This document shows, one piece after another, positions 3,366-13,473 of a DNA stretch of 64,000 nucleotides. The stretch spans positions 124,029 through 188,028 of the forward strand of contig DASWWS010000002.1 in assembly GCA_036405895.1 (NCBI GenBank), given 5' to 3'. The first letter of the stretch is position 1, and every line of letters starts with the position of its first letter. The notes beneath the pieces were generated by a model. It made no database searches and was not told the DNA's origin. It saw only the letters and a program-made list of their open reading frames with translations. Position numbers and translations under genes: made by a program. The DNA is from Minisyncoccota bacterium (GTDB taxonomy: Bacteria; Patescibacteriota; Minisyncoccia; Phycocordibacterales; UBA9973).

Positions 3366-3500
3366 TTTATAGTCGCTCTCGCTAAAAACAGAGTGGGTCG
3401 CTTGCGGAGGCATTATATAGTCGCTGACGCTCCTTATAATGCACTGCGCAAAATATGGTCGCACCTACGGTGCTTCCTATTTTGCGGAGGATGTGAGACG
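3366..3500. repeat. 135-bp intergenic repeat, copy 2, upstream of the NTase gene. It ends in a 15-nt copy of the 3' end of the adjacent tRNA (3484-3498).
   Basis: Aligned to 1813-1950. The distal core gcggaggatgtgaga is identical to the reverse complement of the tRNA 3' end at 3694-3708. Confidence 0.8.
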
Positions 3501-3693
3501 CTGAGCTATTCGCCCGCGAGTCTTTGTTTGATCAGTCACCAAACAAAGCTCTGGGCACCGGCTCAGTAGATTCTTCTGCTGAAGAATCATACTTCCGCCG
3601 TTCTCATCTCAACGTAAACCAAAGCAGTTTGGTTTACTCATCCTCCGCGAATAAAAATGGCCCAGATTTCTCTGGGACGCATTTTTATACTCG
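3501..3693. ncRNA. Structured ~190-nt tRNA-associated module A. It consists of a closing stem, three internal hairpins and a bidirectional terminator hairpin.
   Basis: Homologous to 4399-4579. Its hairpins covary with the second copy: GATTCTTC-TGCT-GAAGAATC vs GATTTCTT-TGCTA-AGAAATC, and GTAAACCAAA-GCAG-TTTGGTTTAC vs GCAATGCA-GTT-TGCATTGC. The terminator inner stem reads CCCAGA..TCTGGG here and CCGACC..GGTCGG in the other copy. The two ends are complementary: GCGGAGGATG..CATCCTCCGC. Confidence 0.5.
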
Positions 3694-3779
3694 CGGAGGA
3701 TGTGAGATTCGAACTCACGGGCCTTTAAGGGGCCGACGGTTTAGTAAACCGTTGATTTAAACCACTCATCCAATCCTCC
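3694..3779 (-). tRNA. Type-II (long variable arm) tRNA, Ser-like. The apparent anticodon is ACU, which is unusual.
   Basis: Hand-folded: acceptor GGAGGAT/ATCCTCC, T-arm GTGAG-TTCGAAT-CTCAC, variable arm GGCC-CCTTAAA-GGCC, anticodon stem ACGGT/ACCGT with loop TTACTAA. Discriminator G. No encoded CCA. Confidence 0.65.
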
Positions 3780-3833
3780 AGGACACCAATAAGTGTTTTG
3801 ATATCCTACCATACTCGCCTAAATAGAAAAGAA

Positions 3834-3880: not shown

Positions 3881-4312
3881 TTAGTACTGAGGCTGAGGCT
3901 CGTGCTTCATCAAGCGCATCAGGTGCGAAAGCGAGTATCGGCCGGGACCCTGCACCAAAAGCGGGATGAGGGCTGCAATGAATACGAGGTTCACTTCCCA
4001 TCCGCCGAGGAATTCCATGTTCATCAAATTCTTTACAACAAATGCAGCAACAATCATGACAATAATAAGGAGGAATGAAACAATCTCGGTTCCAATACCC
4101 ACAATGAGCGCCAGACCGCCGATTGTTTCAACAAGCGTCACAATCCATGCCATGAGTCCCGCAAGCGGGAATCCCCATGCAACGAAGCCTTCCGTTACCG
4201 CCTCAATCCCCATGTTGAACTTCTGCAAGCCATGAAGGAAGAAAGCAATACCGACAATAATGCGGACAATCAACAGCGCTGTATTTATTTTGCCTTTGAA
4301 TATATTTCTCAT
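3881..4312 (-). CDS. DoxX-family integral membrane protein
   Basis: 143 aa with four predicted TM helices. LHGLQKF...GG motif typical of DoxX. Confidence 0.6.
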   Translation of the reverse strand: MRNIFKGKINTALLIVRIIVGIAFFLHGLQKFNMGIEAVTEGFVAWGFPLAGLMAWIVTLVETIGGLALIVGIGTEIVSFLLIIVMIVAAFVVKNLMNMEFLGGWEVNLVFIAALIPLLVQGPGRYSLSHLMRLMKHEPQPQY

Positions 4313-4345
4313 GTACTAAAGTGTATCACTGATAGGTATAACAGA

Positions 4346-4376
4346 AAACTAGCAAGGACGGTCCTTGCTAGTTTTT
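4346..4376. terminator. GGACGGTCC-core palindromic hairpin (CTAGCAAGGACGGTCCTTGCTAG) flanked by A/T runs
   Basis: Inverted repeat seen directly. Confidence 0.7.
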
Positions 4377-4398
4377 TATTTTTGCGGAGACGGCGAGA

Positions 4399-4579
4399 AT
4401 TTCTCCCTCGCCTCTCGTTGTGTCAGACACACTTCCTCGGGCTGGTCACCAGCTCAGTAGATTTCTTTGCTAAGAAATCATACTTCCGCTGTTCGAATCT
4501 CACCCGCAATGCAGTTTGCATTGCTCGTCTCCGCGAATAAAAATGGCCCGACATTAGGTCGGACTCATTTTTATACTCG
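4399..4579. ncRNA. Structured tRNA-associated module B, homologous to 3501-3693. It is bounded by a 15-nt copy of the tRNA-Ser 3' end at 4384-4398.
   Basis: See module A. Closing stem GCGGAGACG...CGTCTCCGC. Minus-strand T-arm-like GCGAG-GGAGAAATT-CTCGC. Terminator hairpin at 4531-4582. Confidence 0.5.
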
Positions 4580-4664
4580 CGGAGACGGCGAGATTCGAAC
4601 TCGCGAGGCTGTGACACCTGCCTCCTTAGCAAGGAGGTACAATCGACCACTCTGACACGTCTCC
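4580..4664 (-). tRNA. tRNA-Ser(GCU)
   Basis: Hand-folded: acceptor GGAGACG/CGTCTCC, anticodon stem CCTCC/GGAGG with loop TTGCTAA (anticodon GCT), long variable arm, T-arm GCGAG-TTCGAAT-CTCGC. Confidence 0.85.
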
Positions 4665-4725
4665 AGTACCGCCACTGTATCATGAAAATACAGTTTTTTA
4701 AAGACTACCCTGCTATACTCTATAC

Positions 4726-5025
4726 ATGACCACTACACACAAAGTACTTGTTGGAATTCTTATCATTATTGTTATTGCGCTTCTTGCGCGCTACGTTGTT
4801 TTTAAAGAAAAGTTCGATGAATGGGGTGCAGGACTCCAGCGTATTGAAGACTGGCAGACTGAGTACAAGCAAAAGAACCCAAATGCTTCCAAAGAAGAAA
4901 TGGATGCTGCATTTGAAGCTGGCATGGACAACATCACTGAGTGGAAAGCAGAGTATAAGCGCGATAATCCAGGCGCGACAGATGCCGAGGCGGATGCTGC
5001 ATTTTCCGCAATGTGGAATAACTAA
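4726..5025 (+). CDS. Small membrane-anchored protein with an internal ~28-aa duplication
   Basis: One N-terminal TM helix. Repeats EDWQTEYKQKNPNASKEEMDAAFEAGM and TEWKAEYKRDNPGATDAEADAAFSAMW. Confidence 0.45.
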   Translation: MTTTHKVLVGILIIIVIALLARYVVFKEKFDEWGAGLQRIEDWQTEYKQKNPNASKEEMDAAFEAGMDNITEWKAEYKRDNPGATDAEADAAFSAMWNN

Positions 5026-5041
5026 TTCTATTTACTGATAT

Positions 5042-5626
5042 ATGCAACCAACCGGAAAAATTCGACTTGAGGCATTCAGCGACGGAGTATTCGCTATTGC
5101 CATCACGCTCCTTGCGCTCGAGCTCCATGTCCCCGCCTTTCTTGGGACCACTTTCTTAGGTTCTCTCCACGAACTCATCCCACTGATTCCTTCAATGCTC
5201 ACCTTTGTACTCTCATTTATCACCATTGCAATCTTTTGGGTCAATCACCACCAGCTCACCCAAAACTTTAGCACCATCACCAAGCGGCGCATTCTTTGGT
5301 CAAATATCCTCTTTCTCCTCTTCTTAACCCTCATCCCCTTTGTTACCGCTGCCGTAAGCATCAGCCCGACTGCGCCCTTAGCAGTATTCTTCTACAGTTT
5401 AGTATTGCTTGGTTCATCGCTCTCCTTCACCCTTATGCGCTATTTTGTGCACAAAGGCTGCGGCCAAAGCCATATCCCCATGACCCGTAGCCTCATTGGA
5501 CCAATCGTGTACCTCCTTGCGGTTATTGCTTCGATTTTTTCAGTCTGGATTGCCTATTTTCTCCTTGCTATCCCGGCATTATTCTATTTCCTCCCAAAAG
5601 GGAGCCTCAAAGAGACAGATGAGTAG
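5042..5626 (+). CDS. TMEM175/DUF1211-family putative potassium channel
   Basis: Starts RLEAFSDGVFAIAITLLALE, the family signature, with six predicted TM helices. Confidence 0.7.
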   Translation: MQPTGKIRLEAFSDGVFAIAITLLALELHVPAFLGTTFLGSLHELIPLIPSMLTFVLSFITIAIFWVNHHQLTQNFSTITKRRILWSNILFLLFLTLIPFVTAAVSISPTAPLAVFFYSLVLLGSSLSFTLMRYFVHKGCGQSHIPMTRSLIGPIVYLLAVIASIFSVWIAYFLLAIPALFYFLPKGSLKETDE

Positions 5627-9372: not shown

Positions 9373-9576
9373 GGTCTATTTAGTTTTTATGGTTCAAATT
9401 TACTTTGTTTATTTTTTATATTATATCACTTTATTTATAAAAAGTCAATAGAGCTCCTCTGCCTAAAAATTGTCTTTTACGTCAGGACTGATAGAATCAA
9501 AGGGTTCTCATTTCCGCTCTTAGCTGTTTGGTGTACGGGCCAAGCAAGGTAGGGGTTATAGAAAATCAATATACTT

Positions 9577-9650
9577 CCGCTCTTAGCTCAGTTGGTTAGA
9601 GCGCCGAGCTTATACCTCGGTGGTCCATGGTTCGAATCCATGAGGGCGGA
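9577..9650 (+). tRNA. tRNA-Ile(UAU)
   Basis: Hand-folded: acceptor CCGCTCT/AGGGCGG (one G-U pair), D-arm GCTC-AGTTGGTTA-GAGC, anticodon stem CCGAG/CTCGG with loop CTTATAC, T-arm CATGG-TTCGAAT-CCATG. Confidence 0.8.
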
Positions 9651-9744
9651 CATTAAGTAAACAAATATGCAGTATGCCTCTGAGGCAATGGCGTGTAGCG
9701 TTTCGACCCCAGGGAGAGGCGGACAAGTGCTATACTGTACACAT

Positions 9745-10289: not shown

Positions 10290-12188
10290 TTAAAGCTCGA
10301 TTTTCTTTAATGGAATGCCGTGAGCGGAAATAATTGCTTCATATTCCGGCTGTTCGAGCGTTTCCACTTCGATTAGCTTTGCGGTGATTGCTTCGAGCAC
10401 ACCCTTGTGTTCGGTAAGAACAGTGCGGGCACGCTCAAATCCTTCTTTCATGATGCGCTGCACTTCGGAGTCGACAAGTGCACTAGTCTGCTCTGAATAT
10501 TCTTTTCCTTTCACTCCTTCGCCGAACATTGCGCGGCCTCCGTCGTTTTCAAGGGCAAGCGGGCCGATGGCATCGCTCATCCCCCATCGTGTCACCATGG
10601 CGCGTGCAAGCGCGGTTGCAACCTGAAGGTCGTTTGAAGGACCGGTTGTCACGTCCCCAAAGATTGATTCTTCTGCAACGTATCCTGCAAGCGACATTGC
10701 AATGTCGTCGAGATATTCTTTCTTGGTGGTAAGCTTTCGCTCTTCAAGCGGAAGCTTCAGCGTGTACCCACCGGCGCGCCCTCGTGCAACAATAGAAACT
10801 TTGTGCACCGGGTCAGCATCCGGAAGAACTGATGCAACAAGCGCATGCGCTGCTTCATGATACGCCGTGATTTTCTTTTCTTTCTTTGTCAGCAAATGGC
10901 TCTTGCGCTCAGGCCCGATCATCACTTTTTCAATGGAGCGTACAAGGTCAAACTGCGATATCTTCTTTCGATTTTCGCGTGCTGCCAAGATTGCACCTTC
11001 GTTCATTAATGAGTAGAGGTCGGCTCCGGAGAATCCGGGTGTGCGCTCTGCTATCACCTTGAGATTCACGTCTTCTGCAAACGGCTTTTTGGTGCTGTGC
11101 ACATTCAAAATGTCTTCGCGGTCGCGACGGTCTGGAAGGTCAAGCATCACTCGGCGGTCAAATCGGCCTGGACGCAACAGTGCTGGGTCCAATACATCGC
11201 TTCGGTTCGTTGCCGCCATCACGATTACCTTGTCGTTCGGTTCAAAGCCGTCCATCTCCACCAATATTTGGTTGAGTGTCTGTTCTCGCTCGTCGTTTCC
11301 ACCGCCATATCCGCCTCCGCGTACGCGTCCTACCGCATCAATTTCATCGATAAAAATAATGGACGGTGCTGCGCGCTTTGCCATCTTGAAAAGGTCGCGC
11401 ACGCGCGATGCGCCCACACCGACAAACATCTCAACAAATTCTGATCCTGAAAGATGGAAGAACGGCACACTTGCCTCCCCCGCTACAGCGCGAGCCAAGA
11501 GCGTCTTCCCTGTTCCTGGTGCACCGGCGAGCAATACTCCTTTTGGAATGCGCGCTCCGATATCCAAAAACTTTTTTGGATTCTTCAAAAAGTCCACAAT
11601 TTCTTTGAGTTCTTCCTTGGCTTCGCGCGCACCTGCAACATCTTTGAATGTTACCCTGTTTGTCGTATCGCTTGGGTCAGTGATGCGCGCTTTTGACTGC
11701 CCGAAATTAAATGCCTGCATGCCAGCACCCTTTGCCTGGCGTGTAAGCATCCAAAAAAAGAATCCAATCAATACTACCGGCAAAAGTATTGGGAGAATGG
11801 TAAGGAAAAAGAATGCGAGGCCTGATGCGCTGGCAACAGTAATGTCGACTGCGCTGATGCGAGGCTCTTCAACACCATATGCTGCCAATGTTTCCACCAA
11901 TGAAGCACTTGGTTCTTTTTTGCTTTCAAGAATTGTCTCGTCTGTTTTTGTAACAGTGAGCGCTTGGTCGTCGATGACAATGCTCTTCACCTCCCCTGCC
12001 TGCACAAGGCGTGCAACTTCTGAAAGGGTCACCACTTCGTTCTTTTCTGTCCCCATACCAGAGACAACAGAGTAGCCGGCAGTAAGGAGTGCGAAGATAA
12101 GGAGGGTTGAAAATATATAGGAAGAAAGAGAGCGCTTGGGAGGCGTCTTTTTTATAGGGTTCGGTGTAGGGATTTCTTGTTTGGACAT
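10290..12188 (-). CDS. ftsH: ATP-dependent zinc metalloprotease FtsH
   Basis: Walker A GAPGTGKT, second region of homology, and HEAAHA zinc motif. 632 aa. Confidence 0.95.
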
Positions 12189-12455
12189 AGGCTTTATTAT
12201 ACATAAAAACGATAAAAACGCCTTTTAGGGGGTATCGACCTCCAGGTTACTAAATATTTTTCAGGGTATCGCCTCACAAATCACTAAGCATAATTCTTCG
12301 CTCCACTCGAATTCTGCCAAGTGTTCGCGAGCCCGGCTCGGTTCCGCCATAGGCGGATACCTGCGCCTTTTCGATACCCACGCAAGACAAGCAGTTGCCC
12401 TGTTCCATCTCCACCTAAAAAACAAAAAACGCCCAAGGGCGCTAATGTTGTTACA
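12189..12455 (-). promoter_or_regulatory. Structured region between ssrA and ftsH with TATAAT 7 nt upstream of the ftsH ATG, repeated CGATACCC motifs, and the ssrA intrinsic terminator (12423-12446)
   Basis: Minus strand reads ...GCGCCCTTGGGCGC-TTTTTTGTTTTTT, a terminator. Three CGATACCC motifs follow. GTATAATAAAGCCT then ATG. Confidence 0.5.
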
Positions 12456-12841
12456 GGTGGAGATGGGGGTATCGAAACCCCGTGCAAATGATCACGAACA
12501 AGTACTTCTCCATGCGTAGTACGATTTAATTGTTAAGACAGAATCTCAAAACCGTACAAAACGATTCATGTCCGAGCCTCGATTGTTTCGGAGTACTGAC
12601 GAGACACGCAGTACTTCCTACGTTCGATGAATGTTGCCGCGACTACGTTATCGAACATCACGTAGAGCGACACCGGATTGACCTAAATTTAGGCGAATGC
12701 CGGAGCGAAGTTTCCAAAATATGGAGACTTCACTGATGCTGTGCTGTTGCCAGGTAAGCGTTCGGACGAATTTTACGAGATACGTCCATTCTCGGCATGC
12801 ATACAGGCCCGATACATCAAATGTCGAAACCTTTCATCCCC
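12456..12841 (-). ncRNA. ssrA: tmRNA (ssrA)
   Basis: Minus strand 5' end GGGGAUGAAAGGUUUCGAC matches the tmRNA 5' consensus. The GCAUGCCGAG...CUCGUAAAA PK1 region is almost identical to E. coli tmRNA. A tag reading frame ends ...GNFAPAFA-UAA (stop at 12689-12691). The 3' T-arm-like GGGGT-TTCGATA-CCCC is followed by acceptor strand CATCTCC-A-CC, which pairs with the 5' GGGGATG using one G-U. It is adjacent to smpB. Confidence 0.8.
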
Positions 12842-12863
12842 AAAGTTGCAATACAGAGCAACT

Positions 12864-13008
12864 TTGGCGCCAGGAGTCGTTTTCGACATTTGTCGAAAAC
12901 TATCGTGGTGCAAAAATTACTGTGCCCTGCTGAAGCTCCATAACAAATTTGGCGCCAGGAGATTTTTTTAGCTTCGCTAAAAAAATTCGTGGTGCAAAAG
13001 CGCCAGGA
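12864..13008. repeat. Tandem 85-bp repeat, 2.1 copies. Each unit is GGCGCCAGGAG-hairpin-TCGTGGTGCAAAA, lying between smpB and ssrA.
   Basis: Unit 1 hairpin GTTTTCGACA-TTT-GTCGAAAAC and unit 2 hairpin TTTTTTAGC-TTC-GCTAAAAAA show compensatory changes between the conserved flanks. Confidence 0.7.
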
Positions 13009-13032
13009 GTTCTATTTGGAAAATCACACTCT

Positions 13033-13473
13033 CTATTGAGCCCCTTCGCGCCTTAGCTCCCGATCAAGGTCGCGCGCTTTGAGCGTTTCTCGTTTGTCGA
13101 AGTTCTTTTTCCCTTTCGCTATTGCGATTTGTACCTTTACGATACTCCCTTTATTATACAACGATATAGGCACTACCGTCAAACCCTTGCTCGAAAGCGC
13201 CCGTAACAAATCATAGAGCTCTTTTTTATTCACTAAAAGCTTTCGGGTGCGATACGGATCATACGCCGAAGAAACATTCTTCTCCTGCCAGGCAGGAATA
13301 TGAGCGCCAAGAAGATAGAGTTCTCCCCCGAGCACTTGCACATAGGCCCCATTGAGGCTGCCGTGATTTGCTTTGAGGGATTTCACTTCAGTACCGAGAA
13401 GCTGTATGCCCGCTTCGAGTGTTTCCTCGAAAGAGTAGTCATGCGATGCTTTTTTATTCCGGATAAATTCCAT
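13033..13473 (-). CDS. smpB: SsrA-binding protein SmpB
   Basis: KKASHDYSFEETLEAGIQLLGTEVKSLK...RTRKLLVNKKE matches the SmpB family. Start moved to MEFIRNKK, since the ORF-track N-terminal extension is hydrophobic junk. Confidence 0.9.
   Translation of the reverse strand: MEFIRNKKASHDYSFEETLEAGIQLLGTEVKSLKANHGSLNGAYVQVLGGELYLLGAHIPAWQEKNVSSAYDPYRTRKLLVNKKELYDLLRALSSKGLTVVPISLYNKGSIVKVQIAIAKGKKNFDKRETLKARDLDRELRREGAQ

Follow-up and report, generated by a model that had tools for sequence, protein, structure and literature searches.

A gene-matched structured element behind ssrA and two tRNA-Ser genes, and a duplicated leader module upstream of ssrA, in a Paceibacteria genome

The flanks of stable RNAs form processing stems, e.g., the RNase III stems of rRNA operons. 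Integron attC, CTX phage attP, the guide-plus-hairpin ends of IS200/IS605 and the IS110 bridge RNA exemplify folded sites or guide-bearing elements. Islands in tRNA and transfer-messenger RNA (tmRNA) genes are defined by the regenerated end of the gene together with a fragment that has been displaced (Islander/TIGER definition, PMC4383910). The window analyzed here, i.e., the whole stretch of 64 kb (positions 124,029 to 188,028 of contig DASWWS010000002.1, Minisyncoccota bacterium), contains an smpB-ssrA-ftsH locus of Paceibacteria (Patescibacteria, or candidate phyla radiation, CPR) with all three genes on the minus strand. A structured leader module lies upstream of the tmRNA gene ssrA, and a structured trailer element follows the gene's 3' end. 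The tmRNA itself is routine; the trailer family is the more interesting result. Its members are small structured elements, hitherto undescribed, that sit at the 3' ends of genes for tRNA or tmRNA (below, t(m)RNA genes). Neither leader nor trailer is matched by any Rfam family. Our joint reading, to which we assign a probability of roughly 0.7, is an ordinary tmRNA with a duplicated leader module in front and, behind it, a trailer that is a small insertion element at t(m)RNA 3' ends. Coordinates refer to the window and, unless stated otherwise, to its minus strand.

The trailer element and its copies behind tRNA-Ser genes

The last 12 nucleotides (nt) of the tmRNA, CCATCTCCACCT (12455-12466), are exactly complementary to AGGTGGAGATGG (12405-12416), a segment located past the intrinsic terminator, a hairpin with U-tract at 12417-12443. 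A preliminary description of this DNA had pointed out the complementarity. It is indeed exact and turned out to be the left end of a conserved structured element. The last 10-12 nt of the tmRNA, the terminator and the inverted complement form a long predicted hairpin (12405-12466; 24 bp, -33.4 kcal/mol). The trailer element itself, of type A, spans 12264-12414 and is matched by the trailer covariance model R2 with 80.4 bits (E 1e-18; model match 12330-12414). It starts with a first inverted segment, anti-X(A) (12405-12416), of which the first two bases (12415-12416) are just outside 12264-12414. A hairpin P2 (12383-12402) with the loop ACUGCU separates it from the second inverted segment, anti-X(B) (12369-12379), whose 11 nt are the exact complement of T-loop plus T-stem. 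The arms P4/P5 and P6/P7 follow, then the 3' strand of P3, which ends in CGATACCC. Further downstream, an older element copy has left a remnant of its 3' module at 12228-12263 (TTTAGTAACCTGGAGGTCGATACCCCC), and 12189-12227 holds a relic 3' half of the ancestral ssrA terminator together with the ftsH promoter region (TGTATAAT).

For comparison we used about 70 related loci (labeled L001 etc.; WIN denotes the window) in which the tmRNAs were located by nhmmer. The remnant in the window resembles the 3' modules of L002, L088, L006 and L019. The same trailer layout is present behind ssrA in 17 other distinct loci: the inverted segments are followed by a core of about 95-100 nt and then, in about half of the cases, by a direct copy of the tmRNA 3' end, beginning at the T-loop. 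The element measures about 150-200 nt and comes with two core types, A and B, in a single five-helix architecture. Types A and B have 55 and 58 predicted pairs, of which 31 and 27, respectively, are compensatory; in the 5' half common to both types this applies to 18 of 20 pairs. The abundance of G.U pairs and the scarcity of A.C pairs indicate that the folded strand is that of tmRNA sense. R2, which was built from the common half of types A and B, matches behind ssrA in 20 loci (18 distinct sequences), and in addition a displaced copy in L104, 1.3 kb from ssrA.

The inverted segments track the tmRNA of their own genome. This holds for CAGUUCCAC in L013 and L026, and for the T-loop variants UUCGAUU, UUCAACU, UUCAAAU, AUUCGAUUU and UUUCGAUA. 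Over 20 copies, mismatches to the gene average 0.55 per 10 nt in the first inverted segment, 1.25 in the second, and 1.65 in the direct copy, which is clearly decayed in 9. That the inverted segment is better conserved than the direct copy suggests that its pairing with the gene 3' end is under selection. Either the host or the element may be the beneficiary of this pairing. The hairpin composed of the last 10 nt of the gene, the terminator and the inverted segment has 21-28 bp in 20 of 20 copies (median 25 bp, -38.6 kcal/mol), and its middle varies in sequence from copy to copy. Rfam searches at permissive E-values, covering the ssrA flanks, ten related loci and the tRNA-Ser region, returned noise and sub-threshold tmRNA_permuted matches only. 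A group I intron in the tmRNA T-loop was considered and rejected: the 3' end upstream of the element is intact, the core is short, and no intron family, including RF00028, appears at E<=10. A kissing interaction of the P2 loop with the P5 loop was inconsistent across copies and was likewise dropped.

R2 matches the window three times, i.e., behind ssrA and behind each of two tRNA-Ser genes. One unit (3485-3779) consists of tRNA-Ser(ACU) (3694-3779), a long hairpin, a terminator and a type-B element (3485-3647; R2 3555-3648, 56.7 bits, E 1e-12); the other (4385-4664) combines tRNA-Ser(GCU) (4580-4664), again with long hairpin and terminator, and a type-B element at 4385-4533 (R2 4446-4534, 47 bits, E 7e-10). 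In both, the tRNA end is followed by a shared trailing stretch with the terminator and then by CGGAGGAUG or CGGAGACG, the complement of the acceptor 3' strand plus discriminator of the respective tRNA. Next come a hairpin with an ACUGC loop, UGAGAU..GAAC, which is the T-arm complement, and the type-B core. At the end of each element stands a direct copy, 14 nt long, of the 3' end of the respective tRNA (3485-3498 and 4385-4398), after which a second terminator is encountered. The minimum free energy fold of the tRNA-Ser(ACU) copy reproduces the consensus architecture (-78.1 kcal/mol, z -8.5).

The tRNA-Ser(ACU) has A at position 34, which in bacteria is unusual for a split codon box; it is located about 800 nt from the normal tRNA-Ser(GCU) and may be cargo or an element-linked variant. 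Five independent Logan contigs of the same species (L298-L302) end beside the tRNA-Ser(GCU) element (window ~4347), which suggests that assemblers break at the element repeat or at strain variation; an empty tRNA-Ser site was not obtained from these contigs. The longer flanks of the close relatives L294 and L295 contain no more element copies and only tRNA-Ile. In the window, tRNA-Ile(UAU) (9577-9651, plus strand) has its first 12 nt and 2 leader nt (TTCCGCTCTTAGCT, 9575-9588) repeated 63 nt upstream (9512-9525). The repeat looks like a displaced 5' fragment and suggests a rearrangement at that tRNA gene, too.

The tmRNA, its leader module and neighboring genes

The ssrA gene of the window is an ordinary one-piece tmRNA with a lineage-typical tag. 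RF00023 aligns to 12455-12841 from end to end (model 1-374) with 108.7 bits at a gathering score of 47 (E 1.6e-41), and the gene is 97% identical to the tmRNA of L002. The tRNA-like domain, pseudoknot PK1, a tag reading frame and an adjacent smpB are all present. The 5' end is GGGGAUGAAAGGUUUCGAC, and PK1 is aligned in the Rfam model. The acceptor stem pairs GGGGAUG with CAUCUCC over 7 bp, G3.U70 included; the gene ends in CAUCUCC-A-CC-U, i.e., the discriminator is A, and the last A of CCA is replaced by U and not encoded. The T-arm (12466-12481, GGGG-UUUCGAUA-CCCC) is non-canonical, with 16 rather than 17 nt. The tag frame (12689-12751) opens with a GGC resume codon at 12751, in register with the Rfam resume position, encodes GNSTASVKSPYFGNFAPAFA and closes as ...GNFAPAFA-UAA (stop 12691-12689). 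Thus the minus-strand tmRNA beside smpB, its 5' end, PK1, tag frame, T-arm, CATCTCC-A-CC end and terminator, all of which the preliminary description had read by eye, were borne out; the covariance search which it had proposed finds the gene and agrees with the resume codon. Its view of the tag as unusual was not. A tag family (G/A)NS(L/T/I)(S/A)KVKSP(F/Y)...FA(P/L)AFA is encoded by 52 of 58 distinct related Paceibacteria tmRNAs (ARAGORN plus frame search), therefore the FA ending is normal for the lineage. A similar ...AUAACU motif precedes every tag of this Paceibacteria family. A rival frame GCA ACA GCA CAG CAU CAG UGA (ATAQHQ*) has no support in the relatives and was ruled out by homology. 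A permuted, two-piece tmRNA was also rejected: it scores 15-35 bits at a threshold of 47 and covers only the acceptor hairpin (model 36-100).

ARAGORN calls no tmRNA in the window and, at relaxed thresholds, yields wrong permuted calls only. Among related tmRNAs it recovers 0 of 18 in which the T-arm is one nt short, and 28 of 43 with a standard arm; the window gene is missed because its T-arm is one nt short. Probably, ssrA is under-annotated in this clade, as tmRNAs with a 16-nt T-arm (e.g., in L002, L083, L017 and L033) are invisible to ARAGORN.

The 191-nt spacer between smpB and ssrA folds into two long rods (-64.1 kcal/mol, z -5.1). Tandem 85-bp repeats had been described here, and in part this stands: CTCCTGGCGC followed by C or T occurs three times and TTTTGCACCACGA twice, at a spacing of 85/84 nt and confined to this part of the window. 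Tandem Repeats Finder detects no 85-bp array at 12864-13008, even at score 30; the short motif cores alone repeat. The arrangement is really one of two two-hairpin modules of about 80 nt plus an extra motif. Leader copy a (12915-12998; leader covariance model R1, 73.8 bits, E 6e-16) is composed of TTTTGCACCACGA, a hairpin, CTCCTGGCGCC and a degenerate second hairpin. Leader copy b (12842-12914; R1 72.7 bits, model match 12835-12914) has a stem P1 formed by 12903-12915 and 12866-76, an extension hairpin (12879-12900) and a second hairpin P2 (12840-12867), whose last paired base is nt -1 of the tmRNA, directly before G1. The extra upstream copy of the leader motif M1 (CTCCTGGCGCT, 12999-13009) is also found in L002, L083 and L294. 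As had been stated, the hairpins between the motifs differ in sequence and covary, i.e., pairing is retained.

In the relatives the leader unit reads GCACCACGA, a hairpin of free sequence, CUCCUGGCGCG and then an A/U-rich second hairpin. The base of the first hairpin is conserved in sequence (GCACCACGA / UCCUGGCGC) and its top varies freely; two positions of the stem base are always non-Watson-Crick (A.C or A-U, and C.C). A consensus from 13 sequences has 24 pairs, 15 of them with compensatory changes. In it 95.5% of the cells are paired, as compared to 36-53% with slid partners, and none of 500 shuffles attains any of the measures. In L003 compensatory changes extend to the conserved stem base itself (GuACCAgaA / CUuCUGGCaC), and L294 provides a further instance of the leader. 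Usually the relatives possess one copy; some genomes, L035, L040 and L094, have two, and in other genomes a variant with a different stem base (GYCCGAC.../...GCUGGAC) is seen. Many relatives have no leader, and their ssrA begins 5-15 nt past the smpB stop codon, which makes co-transcription of smpB and ssrA plausible.

R1 was searched in 75 sources comprising 440 kb of related DNA and in the 64-kb window. The matches are confined to the immediate upstream region of ssrA; thus the leader is not a dispersed repeat of the repetitive extragenic palindrome or miniature inverted-repeat (REP/MITE) kind. The compensatory changes favor a folded single strand, i.e., RNA, over a double-stranded protein-binding array. 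The generic tandem array for protein binding which had been suggested gives way to a duplicated leader module that is ssrA-specific in the relatives. The conserved stem base may have a protein partner; it would then be the recognition site for a nuclease or another protein. We suppose that ssrA is transcribed either together with smpB or from a promoter inside smpB. An RNase P cut at G1 would leave an upstream RNA that ends in a flush hairpin and is shielded from 3' exonucleases. A 12-nt complementarity between leader unit b (12881-12892) and tmRNA nt 13-24 (12818-12829) exists in the window only; in the relatives it amounts to 5-8 nt. It was dropped as a conserved feature, as it is absent from all relatives.

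The smpB reading frame (13033-13473, 146 aa, PF01668) is located 191 nt upstream of ssrA. Among SmpB homologs, 4066 carry PF01668, the top one, from Patescibacteria, with 92% identity; the nearest relatives are metagenome-assembled genomes of Patescibacteria/Paceibacteria (Minisyncoccia). The Logan contig L001 represents the same genome as the window, and there, too, the gene is called SmpB. Inside smpB a sigma-70-like candidate promoter (13153-13182, TTGACG-18-TATAAT, 11/12) emerges from a consensus scan only; this near-consensus site is about 310 nt upstream of the tmRNA 5' end and is a possible internal ssrA promoter. On the other side ftsH (10290-12188) is positioned 266 nt downstream of ssrA; the identical protein has the Pfam domains AAA and Peptidase_M41. 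In an exact-protein look-up the SmpB and DoxX proteins were without record.

Insertion, exchange and rival explanations

L084, a close relative with ftsH beside ssrA, has no trailer element and thus represents an empty site. From its tmRNA end through the terminator to the promoter of ftsH, L084 is collinear with a stretch of L002 made up of the distal direct copy, the second terminator and the ftsH promoter; in the corresponding distal stretch of the window, which is collinear with both (the relic at 12189-12227), the acceptor part and half of the terminator are lost. The element is also missing in the close relatives L083, L003, L082, L294 and L295. The tmRNAs of L006 and L088 are 98% identical vs. 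61% for the cores, which are of different types, and the divergence sets in exactly from the T-arm onward. Likewise, WIN and L002 share 97% in the tmRNA and 71% in the core, and the core of L032 is nearer to the WIN core (76%). Behind the current element, WIN, L006 and L019 retain the tail of an older one. Because its phylogeny is incongruent with that of the tmRNA and because empty sites exist, the trailer behaves as a small non-coding insertion element. It has in common with islands that the gene end is regenerated, that a direct fragment is displaced and that relatives possess an empty site. An integrase is not among the findings: the 150-200-nt element has no open reading frame (ORF), and the neighbors are ftsH, DoxX, methyltransferase, NTP_transf_2 and TMEM175.

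Two observations at related loci may be added. In L104 a 1.3-kb insert with one HTH_3 gene and one NYN-domain gene (3937-5267) is situated between ssrA and the displaced older element copy; it is a small cargo island without integrase. In L041 (~3790-3800) a scaffold gap, an N-run, separates two tmRNA 3' ends, each with an element behind it; probably, the duplicated 3' end has misled the assembly here.

Our picture is as follows. Past the terminator the trailer presents, in this order, the inverted acceptor complement, the ACUGCU hairpin, the inverted T-stem/T-loop complement, two arms and the direct copy, the latter being the displaced ancestral gene 3' end. We propose that it inserts itself at the 3' ends of t(m)RNA genes as a small, non-autonomous element. 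The retained inverted complement is predicted to pair over about 25 bp with the gene 3' end, in a read-through transcript or in single-stranded DNA, and this duplex could serve as a processing site of RNase III size or as a recombination site. Several points weigh against our proposal. No recombinase, transposase or reverse transcriptase gene is near any copy, and the element was not found in the viral contigs scanned; where the pattern scans for the two modules returned hits at all, these numbered 12 and, for the leader pattern, 120, all of them chance matches to coding DNA that lack the hairpins. Homologous recombination could swap element types between near-identical tmRNAs. The inverted complement is better preserved than the direct copy, which is compatible with a host or cis function no less than with mobility. 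The sample is small: the targets are tmRNA and two tRNA-Ser, and the loci of the relatives held just 7 tRNA genes, all tRNA-Ile. Co-transcription and the RNase P and RNase III steps we infer from the sequence. Finally, the leader is absent from many related genomes and hence dispensable.

A more far-reaching version of mobility, which we hold tentatively and regard as unlikely, considers the trailer a protein-less, retargetable class of elements: a split guide around the ACUGCU hairpin would pair with t(m)RNA 3' ends, and a trans-acting enzyme would insert the element, in the form of RNA or of folded single-stranded DNA, whereby the gene end would be duplicated or replaced. The opposite view is also doubtful, namely that the trailer is immobile, a vertically inherited cis 3' trailer of the t(m)RNA precursor which guides endonucleolytic 3' maturation as a fail-safe behind the terminator, with the direct copy as an internal competitor that releases the tRNA-like domain. 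The near-perfect inverted complement in 20 of 20 copies next to a decaying direct copy, a duplex of 21-28 bp that is conserved in structure and not in sequence, the G.U bias which marks the transcribed strand, and the lack of a full encoded CCA in these genes would all suit a cis trailer. They are opposed by core similarities that are incongruent with tmRNA similarity, by presence and absence varying among close relatives with an empty site collinear with the distal copy, by stacked older remnants in WIN, L006, L019 and L104, and by the position of the inverted segment past the U-tract, hence outside terminated transcripts.

It is improbable that the copies are decayed remnants of integrase-borne islands or prophages in the T-loop, devoid of a structure or function of their own, even if the regenerated 3' end and a displaced direct fragment starting at the T-loop are an island hallmark (PMC4383910). 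The 1.3-kb cargo insert of L104 at the same site points in this direction as well. Yet 20 of 20 copies share a size of about 150-200 nt, five helices, 27-31 compensatory pairs and a conserved loop, which random deletions would not be expected to produce; no integrase is nearby, and a matched inverted copy of the target is, to our knowledge, not a feature of known islands. For the upstream region we judge it very improbable that the motifs act as double-stranded DNA, with M1 and the next hairpin arm as a sigma-54 promoter (TGGCGC-N5-TTGCT) and the others as activator or repressor sites. The GG/GC spacing does fit -24/-12 in both units of the window (weakly in the upstream one), in L083 and in L003. 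However, the -12 GC is missing in the closest relative, L002, and in L084, L013 and L030, so that the sigma-54 reading of M1 was ruled out, and the variation of the stems, both those between the motifs and those around them, is compensatory, as expected of a folded strand. Practically negligible is the probability that the 12-nt complementarity is a by-product, with AGGUGGAG as Shine-Dalgarno sequence and start codon of a small ORF and a chance complement to the CCA end. A 46-aa ORF with a GTG start does begin at 12414, and the tmRNA 3' end resembles an anti-Shine-Dalgarno sequence. Against this, the segment recurs in 20 copies, follows gene-specific differences (the CAGUUCCAC tmRNAs and the two tRNA-Ser), extends to the non-coding trailer and the T-loop, and no ORF is conserved.

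Meaning and comparison with known systems

In the leader we see a candidate for a new RNA motif, linked to the expression of smpB-ssrA in organisms whose RNA-processing machinery is minimal. The trailer family means that in these tiny genomes the 3' ends of t(m)RNA genes are occupied by a structured, gene-matched, non-coding element. Mobility by base-pair recognition, if true, would amount to a novel mode of tRNA gene targeting; a role as processing device, if this holds instead, would add a new 3' maturation route for t(m)RNA genes that lack CCA. With the covariance models R1 and R2 either reading of the trailer becomes testable. Further, the T-arm variant makes a standard annotator miss ssrA throughout a Patescibacteria clade.

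Compared with one-piece tmRNAs (RF00023; Mollicutes and other CPR with FA tags), the window gene conforms in the full model, G3.U70, PK1, the adjacent smpB, a resume codon near nt 91, and a hydrophobic tag end followed by UAA. It differs by its 16-nt T-arm, the Gly resume codon and the partly encoded CCA. In the RNase III stems of rRNA operons, as here, the end of a stable RNA and its flank form a duplex of >20 bp, and hairpins abut the mature ends; the difference is that the trailer is predicted to pair with the mature 3' strand itself, and not leader with trailer. The likeness to integron attC and phage attP sites, IS200/IS605 ends and the IS110 bridge RNA, which we take as a lead, resides in a structured element with target-pairing or target-mimicking sequence beside a hairpin; the trailer departs from these in its segments of 10 + 12 nt, in its layout and in that no matching recombinase is near the window copies. 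With islands (PMC4383910) the trailer shares the site at the t(m)RNA 3' end, the regenerated end, the fragment starting at the T-loop, empty and occupied sites and stacked remnants; it is set apart by a size of about 150-200 nt without integrase or cargo, by its five-helix fold and by the gene-matched inverted copy that is split by a hairpin.

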